Made by a program: the position numbers and the translations under genes. A stretch of 30,068 bases of DNA from the IMG/VR virus record IMGVR_UViG_2706794678_000007. One strand, written 5' to 3'. The DNA is from a virus. Taxonomy: Duplodnaviria > Heunggongvirae > Uroviricota > Caudoviricetes. Positions 10,173-17,594 of the stretch are shown here, in pieces. Numbering within the stretch: position 1 is the first letter of the stretch; every line of letters starts with the position of its first letter. The notes under the pieces were generated by a model. It saw nothing but the letters and a program-made list of their open reading frames with translations. It had not been told where the DNA came from and ran no database searches.

Positions 10173-10309
10173 AATCTTAACTACAATATGATTCATTTTG
10201 ATGATTGTTTCATAAGGAACAGTGAAGTAAGATCTAAGAGGAGTTAAATTTTATACAGTATAATCATAATATTGCAGCAAGGTGGTTATAATTGAAAGAA
10301 TATTTAGAT

Positions 10310-11767
10310 ATGAATACATCTCATGTAAGAGTTGTTACTCATATGTGTGGGTTCCTGGTTTGGCTCTATAGTCTTTCAATGTTGCCACCAATGGTTGTAG
10401 CATTGTTTTATAAAGAAAAAAGCCTGTTCGTTTTCTTTATAACTTTCGTTATATTTTTTTGCATTGGTGGCGGAGCGTGGTATACAACTAAGAAATCTGG
10501 CATTCAATTACGTACCCGTGATGGGTTTATTATAATTGTAATGTTTTGGATTTTGTTTTCTGTTATTAGTGCATTCCCTTTATGGATTGACTCAGAACTT
10601 AATTTAACGTTCATTGATGCTCTGTTTGAAGGGGTTTCTGGAATAACAACAACAGGAGCAACTGTAATTGATGATGTTAGTTCATTACCTCGGGCATATT
10701 TGTACTATCGGTCACAGTTAAATTTTATAGGTGGTTTAGGAGTTATTGTTCTGGCGGTTGCAGTATTGCCATTATTGGGTATTGGTGGTGCAAAGCTTTA
10801 TCAGTCAGAAATGCCGGGGCCATTTAAGGATGACAAACTCACTCCCCGCCTGGCCGATACGTCACGGACACTGTGGATAACTTATTCTTTATTAGGTATT
10901 GCTTGTATTGTCTGTTATAGACTTGCAGGAATGCCTTTGTTTGATGCTATTTGTCACGGGATTTCCACAGTTTCGCTTGGTGGTTTCTCAACTCATAGCG
11001 AGAGTATCGGATATTTTAATAACTATTTGGTTGAGCTGGTGGCTGGTTCTTTTTCCCTGCTATCGGCTTTCAACTTCACTCTTTGGTATATTGTTATTAG
11101 CAGAAAAACGATAAAACCTTTAATCAGAGATATTGAACTTCGTTTCTTTCTGTTAATAGCCTTAGGGGTGATCATTGTTACCTCTTTCCAGGTCTGGCAT
11201 ATAGGTATGTATGACTTGCATGGAAGTTTTATTCATTCGTTTTTTCTTGCCAGCTCCATGCTCACTGATAATGGTTTAGCTACGCAGGATTATGCAAACT
11301 GGCCCACGCACACGATAGTGTTTTTGCTGTTGTCAAGTTTCTTTGGGGGATGTATAGGTTCAACCTGTGGTGGAATTAAGTCACTTCGATTTCTTATACT
11401 TTTCAAACAAAGCAAACACGAGATAAATCAGCTTTCTCATCCCAGAGCGTTGTTGAGTGTAAATGTAGGAGGGAAGATAGTTACAGATCGTGTAATGAGG
11501 TCTGTATGGAGTTTCTTTTTTCTTTATACTCTCTTCACGGTGTTTTTTATACTGGTGTTAAATGGTATGGGATATGATTTTCTTACATCATTTGCAACAG
11601 TGGCTGCATGTATTAATAATATGGGATTAGGTTTTGGGGCTACTGCATCGTCATTCGGAGTGCTTAATGACATTGCAAAATATTTAATGTGCATAGCTAT
11701 GATTCTTGGTCGCCTTGAAATTTATCCTGTTATTATATTGTTTTCAGGTTTTTTTTGGCGCTCCTAA
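10310..11767 (+). CDS. trkG: Trk-system K+ uptake protein TrkG (TrkH/TrkG family)
   Basis: 485-aa polytopic membrane protein with repeated glycine-containing selectivity-filter-like segments (TTTGATV, LGIGGAK, STVSLGGFST, NNMGLGFG). Recognised as TrkG, known to be prophage (Rac)-encoded in E. coli K-12. Start at ATG 10310 (MNTSH…); the ORF-track TTG at 10292 has a better SD and is a possible alternative. Confidence 0.93.
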   Translation: MNTSHVRVVTHMCGFLVWLYSLSMLPPMVVALFYKEKSLFVFFITFVIFFCIGGGAWYTTKKSGIQLRTRDGFIIIVMFWILFSVISAFPLWIDSELNLTFIDALFEGVSGITTTGATVIDDVSSLPRAYLYYRSQLNFIGGLGVIVLAVAVLPLLGIGGAKLYQSEMPGPFKDDKLTPRLADTSRTLWITYSLLGIACIVCYRLAGMPLFDAICHGISTVSLGGFSTHSESIGYFNNYLVELVAGSFSLLSAFNFTLWYIVISRKTIKPLIRDIELRFFLLIALGVIIVTSFQVWHIGMYDLHGSFIHSFFLASSMLTDNGLATQDYANWPTHTIVFLLLSSFFGGCIGSTCGGIKSLRFLILFKQSKHEINQLSHPRALLSVNVGGKIVTDRVMRSVWSFFFLYTLFTVFFILVLNGMGYDFLTSFATVAACINNMGLGFGATASSFGVLNDIAKYLMCIAMILGRLEIYPVIILFSGFFWRS

Positions 11768-11904: not shown

Positions 11905-12693
11905 ATGAGCGAGAAATTAAAGATAGTCTATCGCCCATTACAAGAATTGTCACCGTATGCGCACAACGCCAGGACGCACAGTACTGAGCAGGTGGCACAA
12001 CTGGTAGAAAGTATTAAGCAATTCGGCTGGACTAATCCGGTGCTGATTGACGAAAAGGGCGAAATTATTGCGGGTCACGGTCGTGTTATGGCGGCTGAAA
12101 TGCTCAAAATGGATTCTGTTCCGGTCATTGTTCTGTCTGGCCTGACGGATGAGCAGAAAAAGGCGTACCGCCTGGCAGATAATCGCCTGCCGATGAATGC
12201 TGGCTGGGATGAAGATCTGTTGCGGATGGAGCTGTCGGACCTAATCAATGCTGATTTTGATGTCTCCCTGACAGGCTTCATCCCGGCAGAAATTGATGAA
12301 CTGTTGACGGATGTTTTGCCCGGTACAGGAAATGAGGAGGAGCCGTATACGACGAAAATTGATACGCCTGTTTATGAGCCGTCAGGCGGTAAACCGGATA
12401 TCAGTGAACTGTACGACGATACGAAAACTCAGGAGCTGATCAGCCGGATACGTTCGGCGTCCCTTGATCCTGATATTGAGAAATTCCTCCTGTGTGCAGC
12501 AGAACGTCACACGGTGTTTAATTTCAGCAGAATTGCGGACTATTACGCTCATGCCCCCGCTGAAATTCAGTGCCTTTTCGAGGAGTCGGCGCTGGTGATC
12601 ATTGATTATCAGCAGGCTATTGAAAATGGATTTGTCCGAATGACGCAGCGCATGGTGGAGATCATGCATGGCGGGGAGGAGGAATATGCGTGA
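11905..12693 (+). CDS. ParB-like nuclease domain protein (YnaK-like, full length)
   Basis: N-terminal ParB/Srx-type motif (…IIAGHGRVMAA…). Sits between trkG and the terminase genes, as in Rac. Confidence 0.8.
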   Translation: MSEKLKIVYRPLQELSPYAHNARTHSTEQVAQLVESIKQFGWTNPVLIDEKGEIIAGHGRVMAAEMLKMDSVPVIVLSGLTDEQKKAYRLADNRLPMNAGWDEDLLRMELSDLINADFDVSLTGFIPAEIDELLTDVLPGTGNEEEPYTTKIDTPVYEPSGGKPDISELYDDTKTQELISRIRSASLDPDIEKFLLCAAERHTVFNFSRIADYYAHAPAEIQCLFEESALVIIDYQQAIENGFVRMTQRMVEIMHGGEEEYA

Positions 12694-13618
12694 TGATTTT
12701 TGCGCCTTTATTCTGACTCACGGGCGACCGGACAAAGTTCTGACTTACCGGACGTTGCGTCGTGCTGGCTATACCGGGAAAATTTTTATCGTTGTTGATG
12801 ATGAAGATAAGACACGGCATCAGTACATGGCTGAATTTGGTGAACAGGTGCTGGTATTTTCCAAAGCCGATATTGCTAGTCGTTTTGACGAAGCCGATAA
12901 TTTTAGTGACCGCCGCTCAATTTTTTACGCCCGTAATGCCTGTTTCGACCAGGCAAAACTGGTCGGGTGTAAATACTTCATTCAGCTCGATGATGATTAT
13001 CACGAGTTCCAGTTTCGGGTGGATCGCAACTATGACCAGGCCTATTTCCCGATAAGGAAACTGGATGAGATCCTTTCTGAAATGCTTGCGTACTACGAAT
13101 CAATACCTGCTCTTTCCATCGCTATGTCGCAGGGCGGGGATTTTCTTGGTGACAATGGCGGCCATGCTTCGTGGGTGAAACGCAAGGCAATGAACAGCTT
13201 TATCTGTTCGGTTGATCGACCGTTCTCATTCATGGGGCGCATTAACGAGGATGTGAATACGTACACGAATCTCGGTCGCTGTGGTGAATTGTTTATGACG
13301 ATCGGTGCTGTCCAGTTAGGGCAGAAACAGACGCAGAAAAACAGCGGCGGAATGACCGAGCTGTATCTGGATTCCGGAACCTACGTTAAAAGTTTTTACT
13401 CCGTCATGTATGCGCCGTCGTGCGTAAAAATCTCACTTATGGGTGCCAGTCATAAACGCATTCACCATCAGGTCACCTGGAACAACGCTGCAGTAAAAAT
13501 CCTTCACGAAAAATACAGGAAGAAGACACCCTGCATATCAATGGGGGTGACAAATGATTCCGTATTCGAAAGTCGAGTCTCTGGCAGCGTGCCGGATGAC
13601 TGCACAACAAATCGCTGA
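12686..13618 (+). CDS. hypothetical protein, possibly GT-A-like (DxD-type motif FIQLDDDY)
   Basis: ATG 12686 with GGAGG at 12676-12680, overlapping the ParB-like gene stop; ORF-track 12668..13618. Rossmann-like N-terminus and LDDD motif suggest a nucleotide-sugar transferase fold. Inference only. Confidence 0.55.
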   Translation: MRDDFCAFILTHGRPDKVLTYRTLRRAGYTGKIFIVVDDEDKTRHQYMAEFGEQVLVFSKADIASRFDEADNFSDRRSIFYARNACFDQAKLVGCKYFIQLDDDYHEFQFRVDRNYDQAYFPIRKLDEILSEMLAYYESIPALSIAMSQGGDFLGDNGGHASWVKRKAMNSFICSVDRPFSFMGRINEDVNTYTNLGRCGELFMTIGAVQLGQKQTQKNSGGMTELYLDSGTYVKSFYSVMYAPSCVKISLMGASHKRIHHQVTWNNAAVKILHEKYRKKTPCISMGVTNDSVFESRVSGSVPDDCTTNR

Positions 13619-13805
13619 CGTTCTGGATGTTGATCTGAACCGACTGAAAGAAAATCGGGAAGCAATGACAGATTTTTATGCGGCCATCCGTAAGGGCAGA
13701 GCGAAAGGTGAAGCCGAGTTACGAGCGGCATTGTTTAAGCTTGCCAGAAAAGGGGATGCCTTTGCTCTGCGCGAACTACTCAGGGTGGATAAAAATCAGG
13801 ACTAA
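13554..13805 (+). CDS. small HTH-like protein (hypothetical); start uncertain (13554 or 13596)
   Basis: 83-aa ORF overlapping the 3' end of the upstream gene; helix-turn-helix-like segment TAQQIADVLDVD; immediately precedes terS. Confidence 0.4.
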   Translation: MIPYSKVESLAACRMTAQQIADVLDVDLNRLKENREAMTDFYAAIRKGRAKGEAELRAALFKLARKGDAFALRELLRVDKNQD

Positions 13806-13808
13806 CTG

Positions 13809-14903
13809 ATGAGCAGACCGGACTGGGGGGCGTTGCAGCAGGAGTATATTGCTGAATACACCCGCTCCGGTATATCTCCGGTGGCATGGTGTGAAGCAAG
13901 GGGACTGAATTACGCAACAGCCCGTCGTTACATCAAAAAAACTCCGAAAAATGCGCAGACAGAAATGTGCAAAACTGCGCAAAAAAGTGCGCAGAAAAAA
14001 TCTGCGCAGACTGCACAAAAGCGGAACGAAAAATCTCAGGAAAAAAAGCCAGTATTCGATGCGGGCCTGAATGAGGGCGACGCGGAGGAATTTTCGTTCT
14101 GTCCCGATGAATTCGGCATTTCTGACCAGCAGGCTAAGTTTGCGATGCTTGTTGCTCAGGGTAAAAAGCCGACAGAGGCGTACCGACTAGCCGGTTATGA
14201 GGGGCAAGGTGCGACAGCTAACAGCAACGCCAGTCGTATGCTTAGAAATGCCAGGGTTTTTCGCGCTATCAGCTACTTCCGCAATCAGTACCAGAAACGC
14301 TATACCGCAGACCTGGATTTACTAGTGAGTCAGTTGATGGCTATTGTCCTGGCCGACCCCAATCAGCTTGCACAATTTCGCCGTGTTAACTGCCGTTATT
14401 GCTGGGGCGAGAATCATCTCTACCAGTGGCGCGATATAGCAGAATTCGACAAGGCAGCGGCGCAGGCTTCCAGAGATGGCAAACCCGAACCGGAATATGG
14501 AGGCCTCGGCTTTGTTGATAACGCCATACCCAATCCGGACTGCCCGAAGTGCTGCGGTGAGGGAACGGGACAGCTTTATATGGCTGATACCACTCTGCTT
14601 GATGGGGATGCGCGGCAATTATATGCAGGGGCAAAATTCGGAAAATTCGGCGTTGAGATCCTGCTGGAGGATAAGGCTGCCGCCCGGCGTGAATTGTTGC
14701 GTTTGTTTTCTGCTGGCGGGGCTTTATGTGCAGATAAGCGGCTACGGGAACTGGAAATTGAACGGCGCAGAATGGAAAACCAGAAGCTGCGCAAAGAGAT
14801 CGAAACGGTGGAAGATAATGAACATCCCCAGCCTGTGGCGATCAATATTAATGTGGTTGATGCCAGAGTAAGGAGTGATGAAGATGATCTCTCCGACGCT
14901 TAA
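13809..14903 (+). CDS. terS: terminase small subunit
   Basis: Directly upstream of and overlapping terL; N-terminal HTH-like region, Lys/Gln-rich repetitive linker, Cys cluster (CRYCWG…CPKCCGEG), C-terminal coiled-coil. Confidence 0.75.
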   Translation: MSRPDWGALQQEYIAEYTRSGISPVAWCEARGLNYATARRYIKKTPKNAQTEMCKTAQKSAQKKSAQTAQKRNEKSQEKKPVFDAGLNEGDAEEFSFCPDEFGISDQQAKFAMLVAQGKKPTEAYRLAGYEGQGATANSNASRMLRNARVFRAISYFRNQYQKRYTADLDLLVSQLMAIVLADPNQLAQFRRVNCRYCWGENHLYQWRDIAEFDKAAAQASRDGKPEPEYGGLGFVDNAIPNPDCPKCCGEGTGQLYMADTTLLDGDARQLYAGAKFGKFGVEILLEDKAAARRELLRLFSAGGALCADKRLRELEIERRRMENQKLRKEIETVEDNEHPQPVAININVVDARVRSDEDDLSDA

Positions 14904-16185
14904 TGTGCCTCAGGCGCGATTTCTTTCAATGCCCCATAAATTTAAAGCCTATATTGCTGGTTTTGGCTCGGGCAAAACATGGGTTGGGTGTGGCGGCATA
15001 TGCAAGGGGATTTGGGAGCATCCAGGTATAAATCAGGGATATTTTGCGCCAACGTATCCCCAAATTCGCGATATTTTTTACCCTACAGTGGAAGAAGTTG
15101 CTGCTGACTGGGGATTGAACGTAAAAATTAATGAGGGAAATAAAGAGGTTCACTTTTATTACGGACGCCAGTATCGGGGAACCACTATCTGCAGATCGAT
15201 GGAGAAGCCACAAACGATCGTCGGTTTCAAAATTGGTAATGCGTTGGTGGATGAACTGGACATTTTGCCGAAGGAAAAAGCCAGAACGGCGTGGCGCAAG
15301 ATAATTGCACGTATGCGTTATAAGATTGATGGACTTCGCAACGGTATTGACGTTACAACCACGCCGGAAGGATTCAAATTTGTCTACGAGCAGTTTGTTA
15401 AAGCCGTGCGTGAAAAAACAGAGCTGGCCTCACTGTATGGTCTGGTGCAGGCATCTACTTTCGATAATGAAAAGAACCTGCCAGCAGATTACATTCCTTC
15501 GCTTCTTGAATCATACCCTCCAGAGCTGATTAAAGCCTATCTTCGAGGACAGTTTACTAACCTGACAAGTGGTACTGTTTACCATCAGTTTGACCGGAAA
15601 CTGAATAATTGCGAAGAAGTGGAGCAGCCAGGGGAGCCGATTTATATTGGGATGGATTTTAACGTTGGAAAGATGGCGGGAATCGTCCATGTGCTGCGTT
15701 TGGGGCTTCCATGTGCGGTAACTGAAATCATCAATGCCTACGATACGCCGGATATGATCCGCATCATTAAAGAACGCTTCTGGCTGTATGATGGGAATGA
15801 TTACCGGAAAGTGAGGGAAATTTATATTTATCCAGATGCTTCCGGGGATTCCAGAAAATCAAGTAACGCAAGTACGACGGATATAGCCCAGCTTAAGCAG
15901 GCTGGTTTTAACGTTGTGGTGAACAGCTCGAACCCGCCAGTAAAAGATCGCGTTAACTCAATGAATGCAATGTTCTGCAATGCCAATGGTGAGCGTCGCT
16001 ATAAAGTTAATGTGAAGCGTTGCCCGTTATATGCCGAATCTCTGGAGCAACAGGTCTGGGATGAGAAGGGGGAGCCTGATAAAAAATCTGGCAATGATCA
16101 CCCGAATGATGCCGGAGGTTATTTCATCGTTAAGCAATTCCCTATTGTCAAACCGACCGGAAGAGTCACATCACTTCGGATTTAA
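14884..16185 (+). CDS. terL: terminase large subunit
   Basis: Walker A-like motif GFGSGKT near the N-terminus; size and position before portal. Start ATG 14884 chosen for SD AAGGAG (14870-14875) spacing; the ORF-track GTG 14875 is too close to the SD. Confidence 0.9.
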   Translation: MISPTLNVPQARFLSMPHKFKAYIAGFGSGKTWVGCGGICKGIWEHPGINQGYFAPTYPQIRDIFYPTVEEVAADWGLNVKINEGNKEVHFYYGRQYRGTTICRSMEKPQTIVGFKIGNALVDELDILPKEKARTAWRKIIARMRYKIDGLRNGIDVTTTPEGFKFVYEQFVKAVREKTELASLYGLVQASTFDNEKNLPADYIPSLLESYPPELIKAYLRGQFTNLTSGTVYHQFDRKLNNCEEVEQPGEPIYIGMDFNVGKMAGIVHVLRLGLPCAVTEIINAYDTPDMIRIIKERFWLYDGNDYRKVREIYIYPDASGDSRKSSNASTTDIAQLKQAGFNVVVNSSNPPVKDRVNSMNAMFCNANGERRYKVNVKRCPLYAESLEQQVWDEKGEPDKKSGNDHPNDAGGYFIVKQFPIVKPTGRVTSLRI

Positions 16186-16187
16186 TT

Positions 16188-17594
16188 ATGGCTGATATAT
16201 CAACACCCAACCTCGACTATAACGATATGCTGGAGGCGTGGGATATTAACGACGCACTGATGGGCGGTACGCTTGAAATGCGCAGGCAGGGGGAAAATTA
16301 TCTCCCAAAATGGCCTAACGAAGATGAAGACGCTTATAAAAAACGCCTGTCTGTGGCTACGCTACTTCCTGTGTATGAAGAAAGCATCAAGCAAAATATT
16401 GGGCGCATATTTGCAGAGCCGACAGTATTGAGTGAGGAAACGCCGGCAAAAATCAGGGAATATGCAGAAAATATCGACATGGAGGGGAGCCGACTGGATG
16501 TGTGGGCGCAGCAATTTTTCAGCCTCGCATTTCAGTATGGTGTGGCACATGCGCTGGTGGACTATCCACGAACGGATATGAAAGAGATTCGGACAAAAGC
16601 CGATGAAAACGCGACCGGTGGTCGTCCGTACGTTACGATGCTGAATCCACGCCAGGTTATTGGATGGAAATCGAAAGTTGAAAAAGGGAAAGTTGTTCTC
16701 ACTGATTTGCGTATAAAAGAGGTCATCATTATTGATGGTGATGATTTCGGGCAGAAGAAGGTGGAGCAGATCCGCCATATTATGCCCCGTCGAGTTGAAA
16801 TTTATCGACGTAGCGAAGGCACTAATGGCGAATCTGTCTGGACGCTTCATGAGTCATGGAATACCAGCCGTGATGATATTCCTCTGGTAACACTGTACAC
16901 GAAGAAAACAGGATTTATGCGTGGTACACCGCCATTGCTTAATCTTGGCTTGCTGAATATCAAGCACTGGCAAAGCCAGAGCGAGCAGGACAATATTCTT
17001 CATGTTGCCCGCGTTCCATTGCTGGTGGCCTACGGGCTGGACAGGAATGAAGAACTGACGGTTGGTGCATCCACCGCTACGATTTTTGAGGACAGAACAA
17101 AAAATGGCCTCGAATATGTTGAACATAGTGGCGCAGCGATAGAATCTGGCGAAACATCACTTGAGAAGCTGGAAAATCAGATGCGTCATGCCGGCGCTAA
17201 ACTTCTGCGTGCTGAAAATACATCCACCAAATCTGTTGATCAGACTAATGAAGAGCGAATGCAGGAAAACTCGCCGCTTTATACAATGGCGAACTCCCTC
17301 GAAGATGCCCTCGATAATATTCTCCAGATAATGGCGGAATGGATCGGAGAGAGTTGCGGTGGCAATGTGGATGTGCGCACTGAACTGGATGTATCTGCCC
17401 AGGTGTTTGACTCATCCTCCGCGCTGGCTGTTCAGTCATTGCGTCAGGGCGGTGATATACGTCAGATTGATGCGGTTCGGGTGTTGCAGGCGTTGAAATT
17501 TATCGATCAGGATTCCCGTCCAGAGGAAGTGATCGATGAATTAAAAAATCAGAGTGTAATGCTGATGGAAATCAATGATGCAAACCGTGAATGA
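16188..17594 (+). CDS. portal protein
   Basis: 468 aa, immediately after terL and before the head morphogenesis gene. Confidence 0.8.
   Translation: MADISTPNLDYNDMLEAWDINDALMGGTLEMRRQGENYLPKWPNEDEDAYKKRLSVATLLPVYEESIKQNIGRIFAEPTVLSEETPAKIREYAENIDMEGSRLDVWAQQFFSLAFQYGVAHALVDYPRTDMKEIRTKADENATGGRPYVTMLNPRQVIGWKSKVEKGKVVLTDLRIKEVIIIDGDDFGQKKVEQIRHIMPRRVEIYRRSEGTNGESVWTLHESWNTSRDDIPLVTLYTKKTGFMRGTPPLLNLGLLNIKHWQSQSEQDNILHVARVPLLVAYGLDRNEELTVGASTATIFEDRTKNGLEYVEHSGAAIESGETSLEKLENQMRHAGAKLLRAENTSTKSVDQTNEERMQENSPLYTMANSLEDALDNILQIMAEWIGESCGGNVDVRTELDVSAQVFDSSSALAVQSLRQGGDIRQIDAVRVLQALKFIDQDSRPEEVIDELKNQSVMLMEINDANRE

Follow-up and report, generated by a model that had tools for sequence, protein, structure and literature searches.

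How a small-terminase oligomer selects viral DNA for packaging is still unsettled. For most headful phages, ES18 among them, the pac site itself is unknown (PMC11260489). The locus described here raises this question in a concrete form: does a cluster of short hexamers inside a small-terminase gene (terS) constitute the sequence by which the terminase would recognize its own phage? The window, that is, the whole stretch of 30,068 nucleotides analyzed, is a Rac-like prophage of E. coli, and its terS segment is 100% identical to that of strain EC2. The TerS gene (13809-14903, + strand; 364 aa) was assigned from its open reading frame and its matches to PF03592 Terminase_2 (E 3.8e-8, 34.5 bits with a cut-off of 26.1, aa 122-321) and to PHROG 51 'terminase small subunit' (E 7e-75); under that annotation, the gene is present in 896 of 5426 complete E. 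coli genomes. The TerL gene (14875-16185, + strand; nuclease/ATPase; PF03237, E 3.7e-33, and PF17289; Terminase_6N/6C) overlaps the 3′ end of terS and is followed by a DUF4055 portal gene (16188-17594). The relatives of TerL are those of Jersey-, Kagunavirus- and Dhillonvirus-type siphophages, and sequence searches returned no solved structure close to TerS or TerL.

Upstream of these genes lie trkG (10292-11767), a ynaK-like gene for a ParB_N-domain protein (11905-12693), a TAGT-family glycosyltransferase gene (TET-associated; PF20691, E 4e-34; 12668-13618) and, directly before terS, an 83-codon ORF (13554-13805). The ParB_N protein and the glycosyltransferase (11905-13618), placed directly upstream of the packaging genes, may form a DNA-modification module in the Rac-like prophage. 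The 83-codon ORF aligns with a central segment of the PHROG 309 'terminase small subunit' profile (positions 145-218 of 319, E 8e-23) and has no match in Pfam or NCBIfam; it could be a relic of another TerS or encode a separate small DNA-binding protein.

A first-pass annotation of this DNA had pointed to six TGCGCA-like hexamers inside terS as a candidate terminase recognition array. An exact scan confirmed the cluster, with six TGYRCA sites within 13952-14017, 144-209 nt inside the TerS ORF; the copy that the annotation had placed at 13967 begins at 13966. Since the whole window holds 31 such sites and shuffled versions of it hold 40 ± 6, TGYRCA is not enriched window-wide; six of them in 66 bp have a Poisson probability of 1.3e-10 per position, or ~4e-6 for the whole window. 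No second cluster was found elsewhere in the window, and none upstream of the array. Five of the copies share one reading frame: hexamer 1 (TGCGCA, 13952-13957; aaT GCG CAg, N-A-Q), hexamer 3 (TGCGCA, 13976-13981; acT GCG CAa, T-A-Q), hexamer 4 (TGCGCA, 13988-13993; agT GCG CAg, S-A-Q), hexamer 5 (TGCGCA, 14003-14008; tcT GCG CAg, S-A-Q) and hexamer 6 (TGCACA, 14012-14017; acT GCA CAa, T-A-Q). Hexamer 2 (TGTGCA, 13966-13971) lies in another frame, as aTG TGC Aaa, and reads M-C-K, so that the AQK/SAQ linker described in the annotation holds for five of the six copies (as N/T/S-A-Q) but not for this one. None of TGCGCA, TGTGCA and TGCACA contains GATC.

The hexamers alternate with A-runs over a region (13935-14047) of 41% G+C, compared with 51% for the gene. 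The A-runs, which the annotation had also remarked on, are indeed there: eight runs of at least four bases, 4-7 long, flank or separate the hexamers. At 13947-14020, Tandem Repeats Finder detects arrays with periods of 12 and 36. The hexamer spacings are 14, 10, 12, 15 and 9 bp, within the 9-15 bp range given in the annotation, but the near-helical phase that it read into them was not borne out: tested against a period of 10.5 bp the positions give a resultant vector of 0.09, and against 12 bp one of 0.81. We also compared 48 distinct alleles that have the N-terminal domain; in most of them all six hexamers read TGCGCA. Hexamer 1 is invariant in the 48, and one allele group has TGCGCG at hexamer 4. 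At hexamer 2 most alleles have TGCGCA (A/C/G-TG CGC AAA), as do about half at hexamer 6; the TGTGCA and TGCACA of the window thus appear to be copies that have decayed a little. Close alleles carry between 5 and 7 copies. Within the close family, 6 of the 36 hexamer columns are variable (π 0.038), compared with 35 of 90 in the remaining linker (π 0.072), a difference that argues weakly for constraint on the hexamers, since conservation extends over the entire 5′ end of the gene.

We then compared the array with those of distant relatives. When one genome per species was scanned with a 50-residue profile of the N-terminus, 80 loci were recovered, which belong to Enterobacterales, Aeromonas, Vibrio and Psychromonas; a second protein search with the N-terminal profile returned mostly truncated ORFs. 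In full-length TerS homologs of 34-43% identity, hexamers stand at the same position in differing frames. The TerS gene of Klebsiella phage ST846-OXA48phi9.2 (37% protein identity) has six TGCGCA at the same place in all three frames, four of them as acT GCG CAa and the others as tTG CGC Act and TGC GCA; in phage PHB10 there are three TGCGCA in two frames, and Aeromonas phiARM81mr has seven hexamers. The hexamer is retained from Escherichia to Aeromonas and Vibrio. Across 88 loci from ~80 species, the cognate hexamer occurs at 25 per kb in the 213 nt after the third helix of the N-terminal domain (see below) and at 0.64 per kb in the flanking 3 kb, a ~39-fold difference. The three frames are used 294, 85 and 21 times, at least two of them in 70 of 75 R-type loci (defined below), and they encode different peptides (AQ/AH, L/M/V-R and CA). 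When synonymous codons were resampled in 82 loci with the proteins held fixed, 42.9 ± 5.6 hexamers were expected and 428 were observed, a ~10-fold excess with p <= 0.01 in 79 of the 82. For the window, 1.3 TGYRCA were expected and six are present, a number reached in 0 of 5000 synonymous resamples. Because the hexamers use three frames, exceed the synonymous expectation about ten-fold, are denser than in the flanks and recur across genera, they make up a DNA motif and not only a peptide repeat, and we conclude from these sequence comparisons that the array is under selection at the DNA level. Adjacent spacings in the relatives are irregular (7-16 bp, with peaks at 7, 9, 12, 14 and 16 and a frequent 9-12-14-7-16 pattern), and a sharp 10.5 bp period is absent from them.

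Database copies of the gene are often frameshifted or truncated in the A-runs of the array (equivalent to window 13935-14047). Seven of the 80 species genomes are affected (L099, L103, L114, L125, L153, L155 and L156), and more than 100 ORFs are only 44-88 aa long. Arrays of the K type carry A9-A10 runs. The frameshifted copies could reflect sequencing error, pseudogenes or transcriptional slippage.

What, then, might read this motif? The TerS protein begins with an add-on module (aa 1-44; 13809-13940, + strand) that we regard as a putative helix-turn-helix (HTH) domain from its AlphaFold model, its fold matches and its position. The N-terminal model has three helices (6-20, 24-30 and 35-38) at medium confidence (pLDDT 69-85), and its best PDB fold matches are all HTH DNA binders (Aca1, IstA, DeoR and sigma region 4), albeit weak ones (E > 0.6); NCBIfam gave a sub-threshold match to the IS66 TnpA HTH. 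The third helix of the model contributes to a putative recognition helix, Y-A-T-A-R-R-Y-I-K (aa 35-43; 13911-13937, + strand). It is followed by a low-confidence linker (aa 45-93; 13941-14087, + strand), the first part of which is encoded by the array; the full-length model gives residues 45-93 a pLDDT below 50, and the N-terminal model does so from residue 58 onward, so the linker is probably flexible as judged from the models. Because the full-length model is poor (mean pLDDT 50.8), it served for the confidence profile only. Further on lies a helical region of the TerS core (aa ~99-160; 14103-14288, + strand; helices 99-146, pLDDT 61-87), which by position would be the canonical N-terminal region of Terminase_2 proteins and, as such, may be the DNA-binding domain of that family; TerS of Pam5 in the PDB matches weakly at aa 108-158.

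The array goes with the extra module, outside the PF03592 match, and in most loci it starts 1-20 nt past the third helix. The module is N-terminal in every one of 277 representative protein clusters, solely on terminase small subunits, and the cores that it precedes fall into at least three groups, two of them Terminase_2-type and another with no hit in Pfam. Within the Terminase_2 core, TerS aa 195-249 (14391-14555) contain a CxxC ... CxxCC pattern (C195, C198, C245, C248 and C249) that is invariant in the family alignment; it looks like a zinc-ribbon insertion, in a part where the structure model is of low confidence.

The hexamer type follows the type of the putative recognition helix. In 73 loci the helix reads A-R-R-Y or A-R-R-H and the array consists of TGCGCA in 3-10 copies; in 13 loci it reads A-K-R-Y and the hexamer is TGCGAA, often in the form of the palindrome TGCGAATTCGCA; and in one, Stx phage 933W, it reads A-R-T-R and the repeat is GATCAT, in four copies at exactly 12 bp. 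Three further loci, with A-R-R-Y and two of them frameshifted, have fewer than two copies. Thus, the helix and motif types agree in 87 of 90 loci, the remaining three being those with fewer than two copies, and no mismatched pair occurs. Across 89 loci, the hexamer type varies with the residue at position 39 (R or K). Each of the three main core groups includes loci of the R type and of the K type, and the motif goes with the helix and not with the core. GER2, a close relative of 933W with the helix A-R-R-Y-I-K, has five TGCGCA. In the homologous arrays of loci L086 and L128 the spacing is kept while each aligned copy differs by C or A at base 5, and this pattern, the same spacing with every copy changed at one base, speaks for function. 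Residue 39 and base 5 of the hexamer may be related by a simple code that pairs Arg with C and Lys with A.

The association is not made up of many independent cases. In DNA alignments, K- and R-type genes can be identical as far as codon 33-35 or so and differ from there on, across both helix and array; these two elements recombine as one cassette with a breakpoint near codon 33-35, upstream of the helix. Because helix and array lie less than 10 bp apart and move together, their perfect association is partly physical linkage, and the alignments suggest that it represents a small number of independent events. A neighbor-joining tree of the remainder of the domain, which scatters the K types, had seemed to indicate many independent R/K switches; we dropped this idea in view of the cassette recombination seen in the DNA alignments.

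The 933W terS (L173 1642-1683) has the same module, with the helix A-R-T-R-I-K, and ~220 Stx-phage records are alike. Each of its GATCAT repeats holds a Dam site, and two leftover TGYGCA stand further downstream. In TerS of the Actinobacillus phage vB_Apl-pPE4 (L176 1050-1110), a different N-terminal domain precedes the core that the window's TerS has, and the linker-coding DNA carries, at the same place, GTTTCCAC/GTGGAAAC repeats in direct and inverted orientation. That this phage has repeats of its own suggests that the layout, an N-terminal domain plus its own repeats, may be general.

We consider it probable, at roughly 0.6, that the hexamers form a TerS recognition array, and so the recognition part of pac, in this Rac-like prophage. 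The recognition array proposed in the first-pass annotation thus survives as a DNA-level repeat that uses three frames, exceeds the synonymous expectation ten-fold, crosses genera and is tied to the helix, but it loses the argument from helical phase. In the mechanism that we propose, TerS would comprise the N-terminal HTH module (aa 1-44), a flexible linker and a Terminase_2-type core presumed to oligomerize as its family does. Several N-terminal modules of one oligomer would each bind one hexamer, and this multivalent contact, made with a cluster practically unique within the cell, would mark the phage DNA. A Poisson estimate for host chromosomes puts clusters of at least four cognate hexamers in 70 bp at ~0.03 per genome. 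Clustering would confer the specificity beyond that of single hexamers, which would be insufficient because single copies occur at ~0.6 per kb elsewhere. The flexible connection between module and core could accommodate the irregular spacing. Bound TerS would recruit TerL, the product of the next gene, which would cut nearby to start packaging, running rightwards into terL and the head genes. A site in DNA that encodes a peptide-tolerant linker would leave the DNA free to evolve as a binding array, and the same placement would keep protein specificity and site together in recombination. From sequence comparison we infer these steps: the identity of TerS as the binder, the reading of base 5 by residue 39, the start of packaging upon binding, and a headful mode.

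A wider proposal, which we put forward tentatively and at somewhat below even odds, is that the N-terminal HTH and its own array form a portable 'address label' cassette that confers sequence-specific packaging recognition on unrelated TerS cores, with a code of R39-C5, K39-A5 and 933W-GATCAT.

The literature that we searched, including the Yersinia vB_YenM paper, contains no mapping of packaging ends for phages with this TerS, and a review of Stx phages has nothing on pac. Nor did we find a published description of the terS hexamer array; most subscription journals lay outside the search, and earlier work may exist. A paper on lateral transduction in LF82 maps pac inside the small-terminase gene of the prophage Gally. 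The end of the vB_EcoP_phi367 record, 787 nt into terS, was considered as an experimental end and rejected, since it matches the start of terL in 933W (nt 788 of terS); it is probably a re-orientation of the record. The ON4706xx E. coli phage records trace to a preprint whose title concerns phages in genomes of clinical isolates.

Known packaging systems offer several parallels. In phage P1, pac lies within the gene for the recognition subunit (pacA); its repeats form two groups flanking the cut, are regulated by Dam methylation and helped by IHF, and the hexamers contain GATC. The seven hexanucleotide repeats of P1 pac form a complex packaging signal and are described as unlikely to occur by chance in the host (PMC11260489). 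The window array likewise is a cluster of short hexamer repeats in the gene for the recognition subunit, and the GATCAT of 933W-type relatives contains the Dam site GATC as the P1 hexamers do; however, the window has one cluster of TGCGCA without GATC, and the two systems are likened by their sites. In lambda, the R sites of cosB are short repeats read by the N-terminal winged HTH of gpNu1, which positions the large subunit; lambda has cos ends and IHF-assisted bending, and its R sites lie outside the Nu1 coding sequence. The likeness consists in several short repeated sites and an N-terminal HTH of the small terminase, whereas the TerS of the window has no Nu1-type family match and its array is inside terS. 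Cos systems in general are treated elsewhere (PMC13595956).

Phages P22 and Sf6 serve as analogies only for the window array, by the position of the site. The pac of P22 is asymmetric and ~22 bp long. Located inside gene 3 (terS), it can be weakened by wobble mutations and functions on plasmids with little surrounding sequence (PMC11260489). It shares with the window a recognition site embedded in the terS coding sequence, but it is a single site and the window has a repeat array; Pfam and PDB searches gave no match between P22 gp3 and the TerS of the window.

The pac region of SPP1/SF6 (pacL, pacC and pacR; small terminase G1P) contains direct repeats as well as stretches of 5-7 A/T pairs that alternate with GC pairs, proposed to wrap around an HTH ring, and the DNA-binding domain of SF6/SPP1 TerS bound the pac repeats without sequence preference (PMC4737164). 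By the latter finding, recognition in a pac region does not have to reside in its repeats. The TerS core of the window belongs to the same Pfam family, PF03592, and its array has the same alternation of A-runs and GC. However, SPP1 pac spans promoters and the start of terS whereas the window array is well inside the gene, and the window repeats show strict conservation and go with an added N-terminal module located ahead of the PF03592 match. This strict conservation and the tie to an added module suggest sequence-specific reading.

The TerS family offers an unusually legible case, with a short, exact, multi-copy motif, three natural specificity variants and a candidate reading residue. If the cassette proposal holds, it would stand apart from SF6/SPP1, for which recognition independent of sequence has been reported, and pac sites, together with the origin and direction of lateral transduction, would become predictable from sequence for hundreds of enterobacterial prophages, including Shiga-toxin phages. 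Since the gene is common in E. coli and the module heads 933W-type TerS proteins, the packaging start would show which chromosomal genes can be mobilized by lateral transduction.

A different role for the same protein-DNA contact has to be weighed. The array might be bound by TerS, or by another phage or host protein, for regulation, for instance in autoregulation of terS/terL or in holding TerS in cis on its own template. The comparative evidence for a protein-recognized DNA motif applies equally here, and the array lies within a transcribed late operon, just upstream of terL. We nevertheless judge regulation improbable: the motif type goes with the N-terminal helix of TerS in every locus, the module is restricted to terminase small subunits, where it is N-terminal, the established role of TerS proteins lies in recognizing DNA for packaging, and no regulator gene accompanies the array.

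A shade less probable still is an element acting in the mRNA, in which the self-complementary hexamers would form alternative hairpins that set translation rate, mRNA stability or the slippage of ribosome or polymerase at the A-runs. The RNA of 13935-14050 folds with -29.8 kcal/mol (z = -4.25) and that of the 933W array with z = -2.4, and the A-runs of up to 9-10 bases, together with the many frameshifted database copies in the array, would fit slippage. The fold z-score is not specific, however, because good folding is expected of every palindrome present in several copies. Selection for structure would tolerate compensatory changes, but the exact hexamer is kept from Vibrio to Escherichia, and it is not conserved which of the copies would be able to pair. 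Many adjacent copies cannot pair with each other because they stand 7 bp apart and TGCGAATTCGCA leaves no loop, and the GATCAT direct repeats are not self-complementary beyond GATC.

We regard as very unlikely an array without any cis function, in which a low-complexity A/Q/K-rich linker has lengthened and shortened by replication slippage and the repeats are identical by descent. Close alleles do differ in copy number (5 to 7), the encoded peptide is a repetitive one that is predicted to lack structure, and tandem units are detected by Tandem Repeats Finder. Slippage would not, however, place the motif in three reading frames with different peptides, among them hexamer 2 of the window, which is out of frame with the other five. 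Nor would it explain the ten-fold excess over the synonymous-codon expectation, conservation at 34-43% protein identity despite diverged flanks, or a motif type that switches together with the adjacent helix.

Least likely of all, the repeats might serve mainly as a recombination junction whose microhomology joins N-terminal modules to different TerS cores, as the same module on three or more core groups, the start of Rac-SA53 homology in the array at 13961 and IS elements inserted in the array in two lineages could suggest, but the R/K breakpoints lie upstream of the helix, outside the array, and microhomology leaves both motif conservation and the motif-helix match unexplained; a junction role may be a by-product.

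With a TerS recognition array as the preferred reading, we turn to loci in which the gene has been disrupted. In Rac-SA53 (L002 2912-3940), whose homology to the window begins inside the array as noted, the N-terminal domain was lost by gene fusion; two hexamers are intact and three of the six are mutated. On this sequence comparison, the array is decaying where the N-terminal domain of TerS was lost. In LT-IIa enterotoxin prophages (L002, L175) the terS module is replaced by a fragment of another gene, described as 'gpOterS; fusion of two genes by deletion'. In E. coli CUWW10, the first hexamer has IS1 beside it (L174 1645-1661, which corresponds to window 13953); this locus, H42, had been taken as a natural breakpoint between helix and array and was set aside once the IS1 insertion at the first hexamer was seen. 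Many Stx2a phage records (LC7278xx; L170 ~1680) have unrelated sequence, which we take as an insertion element, right after the GATCAT repeats, and their TerS is truncated to 59 aa.
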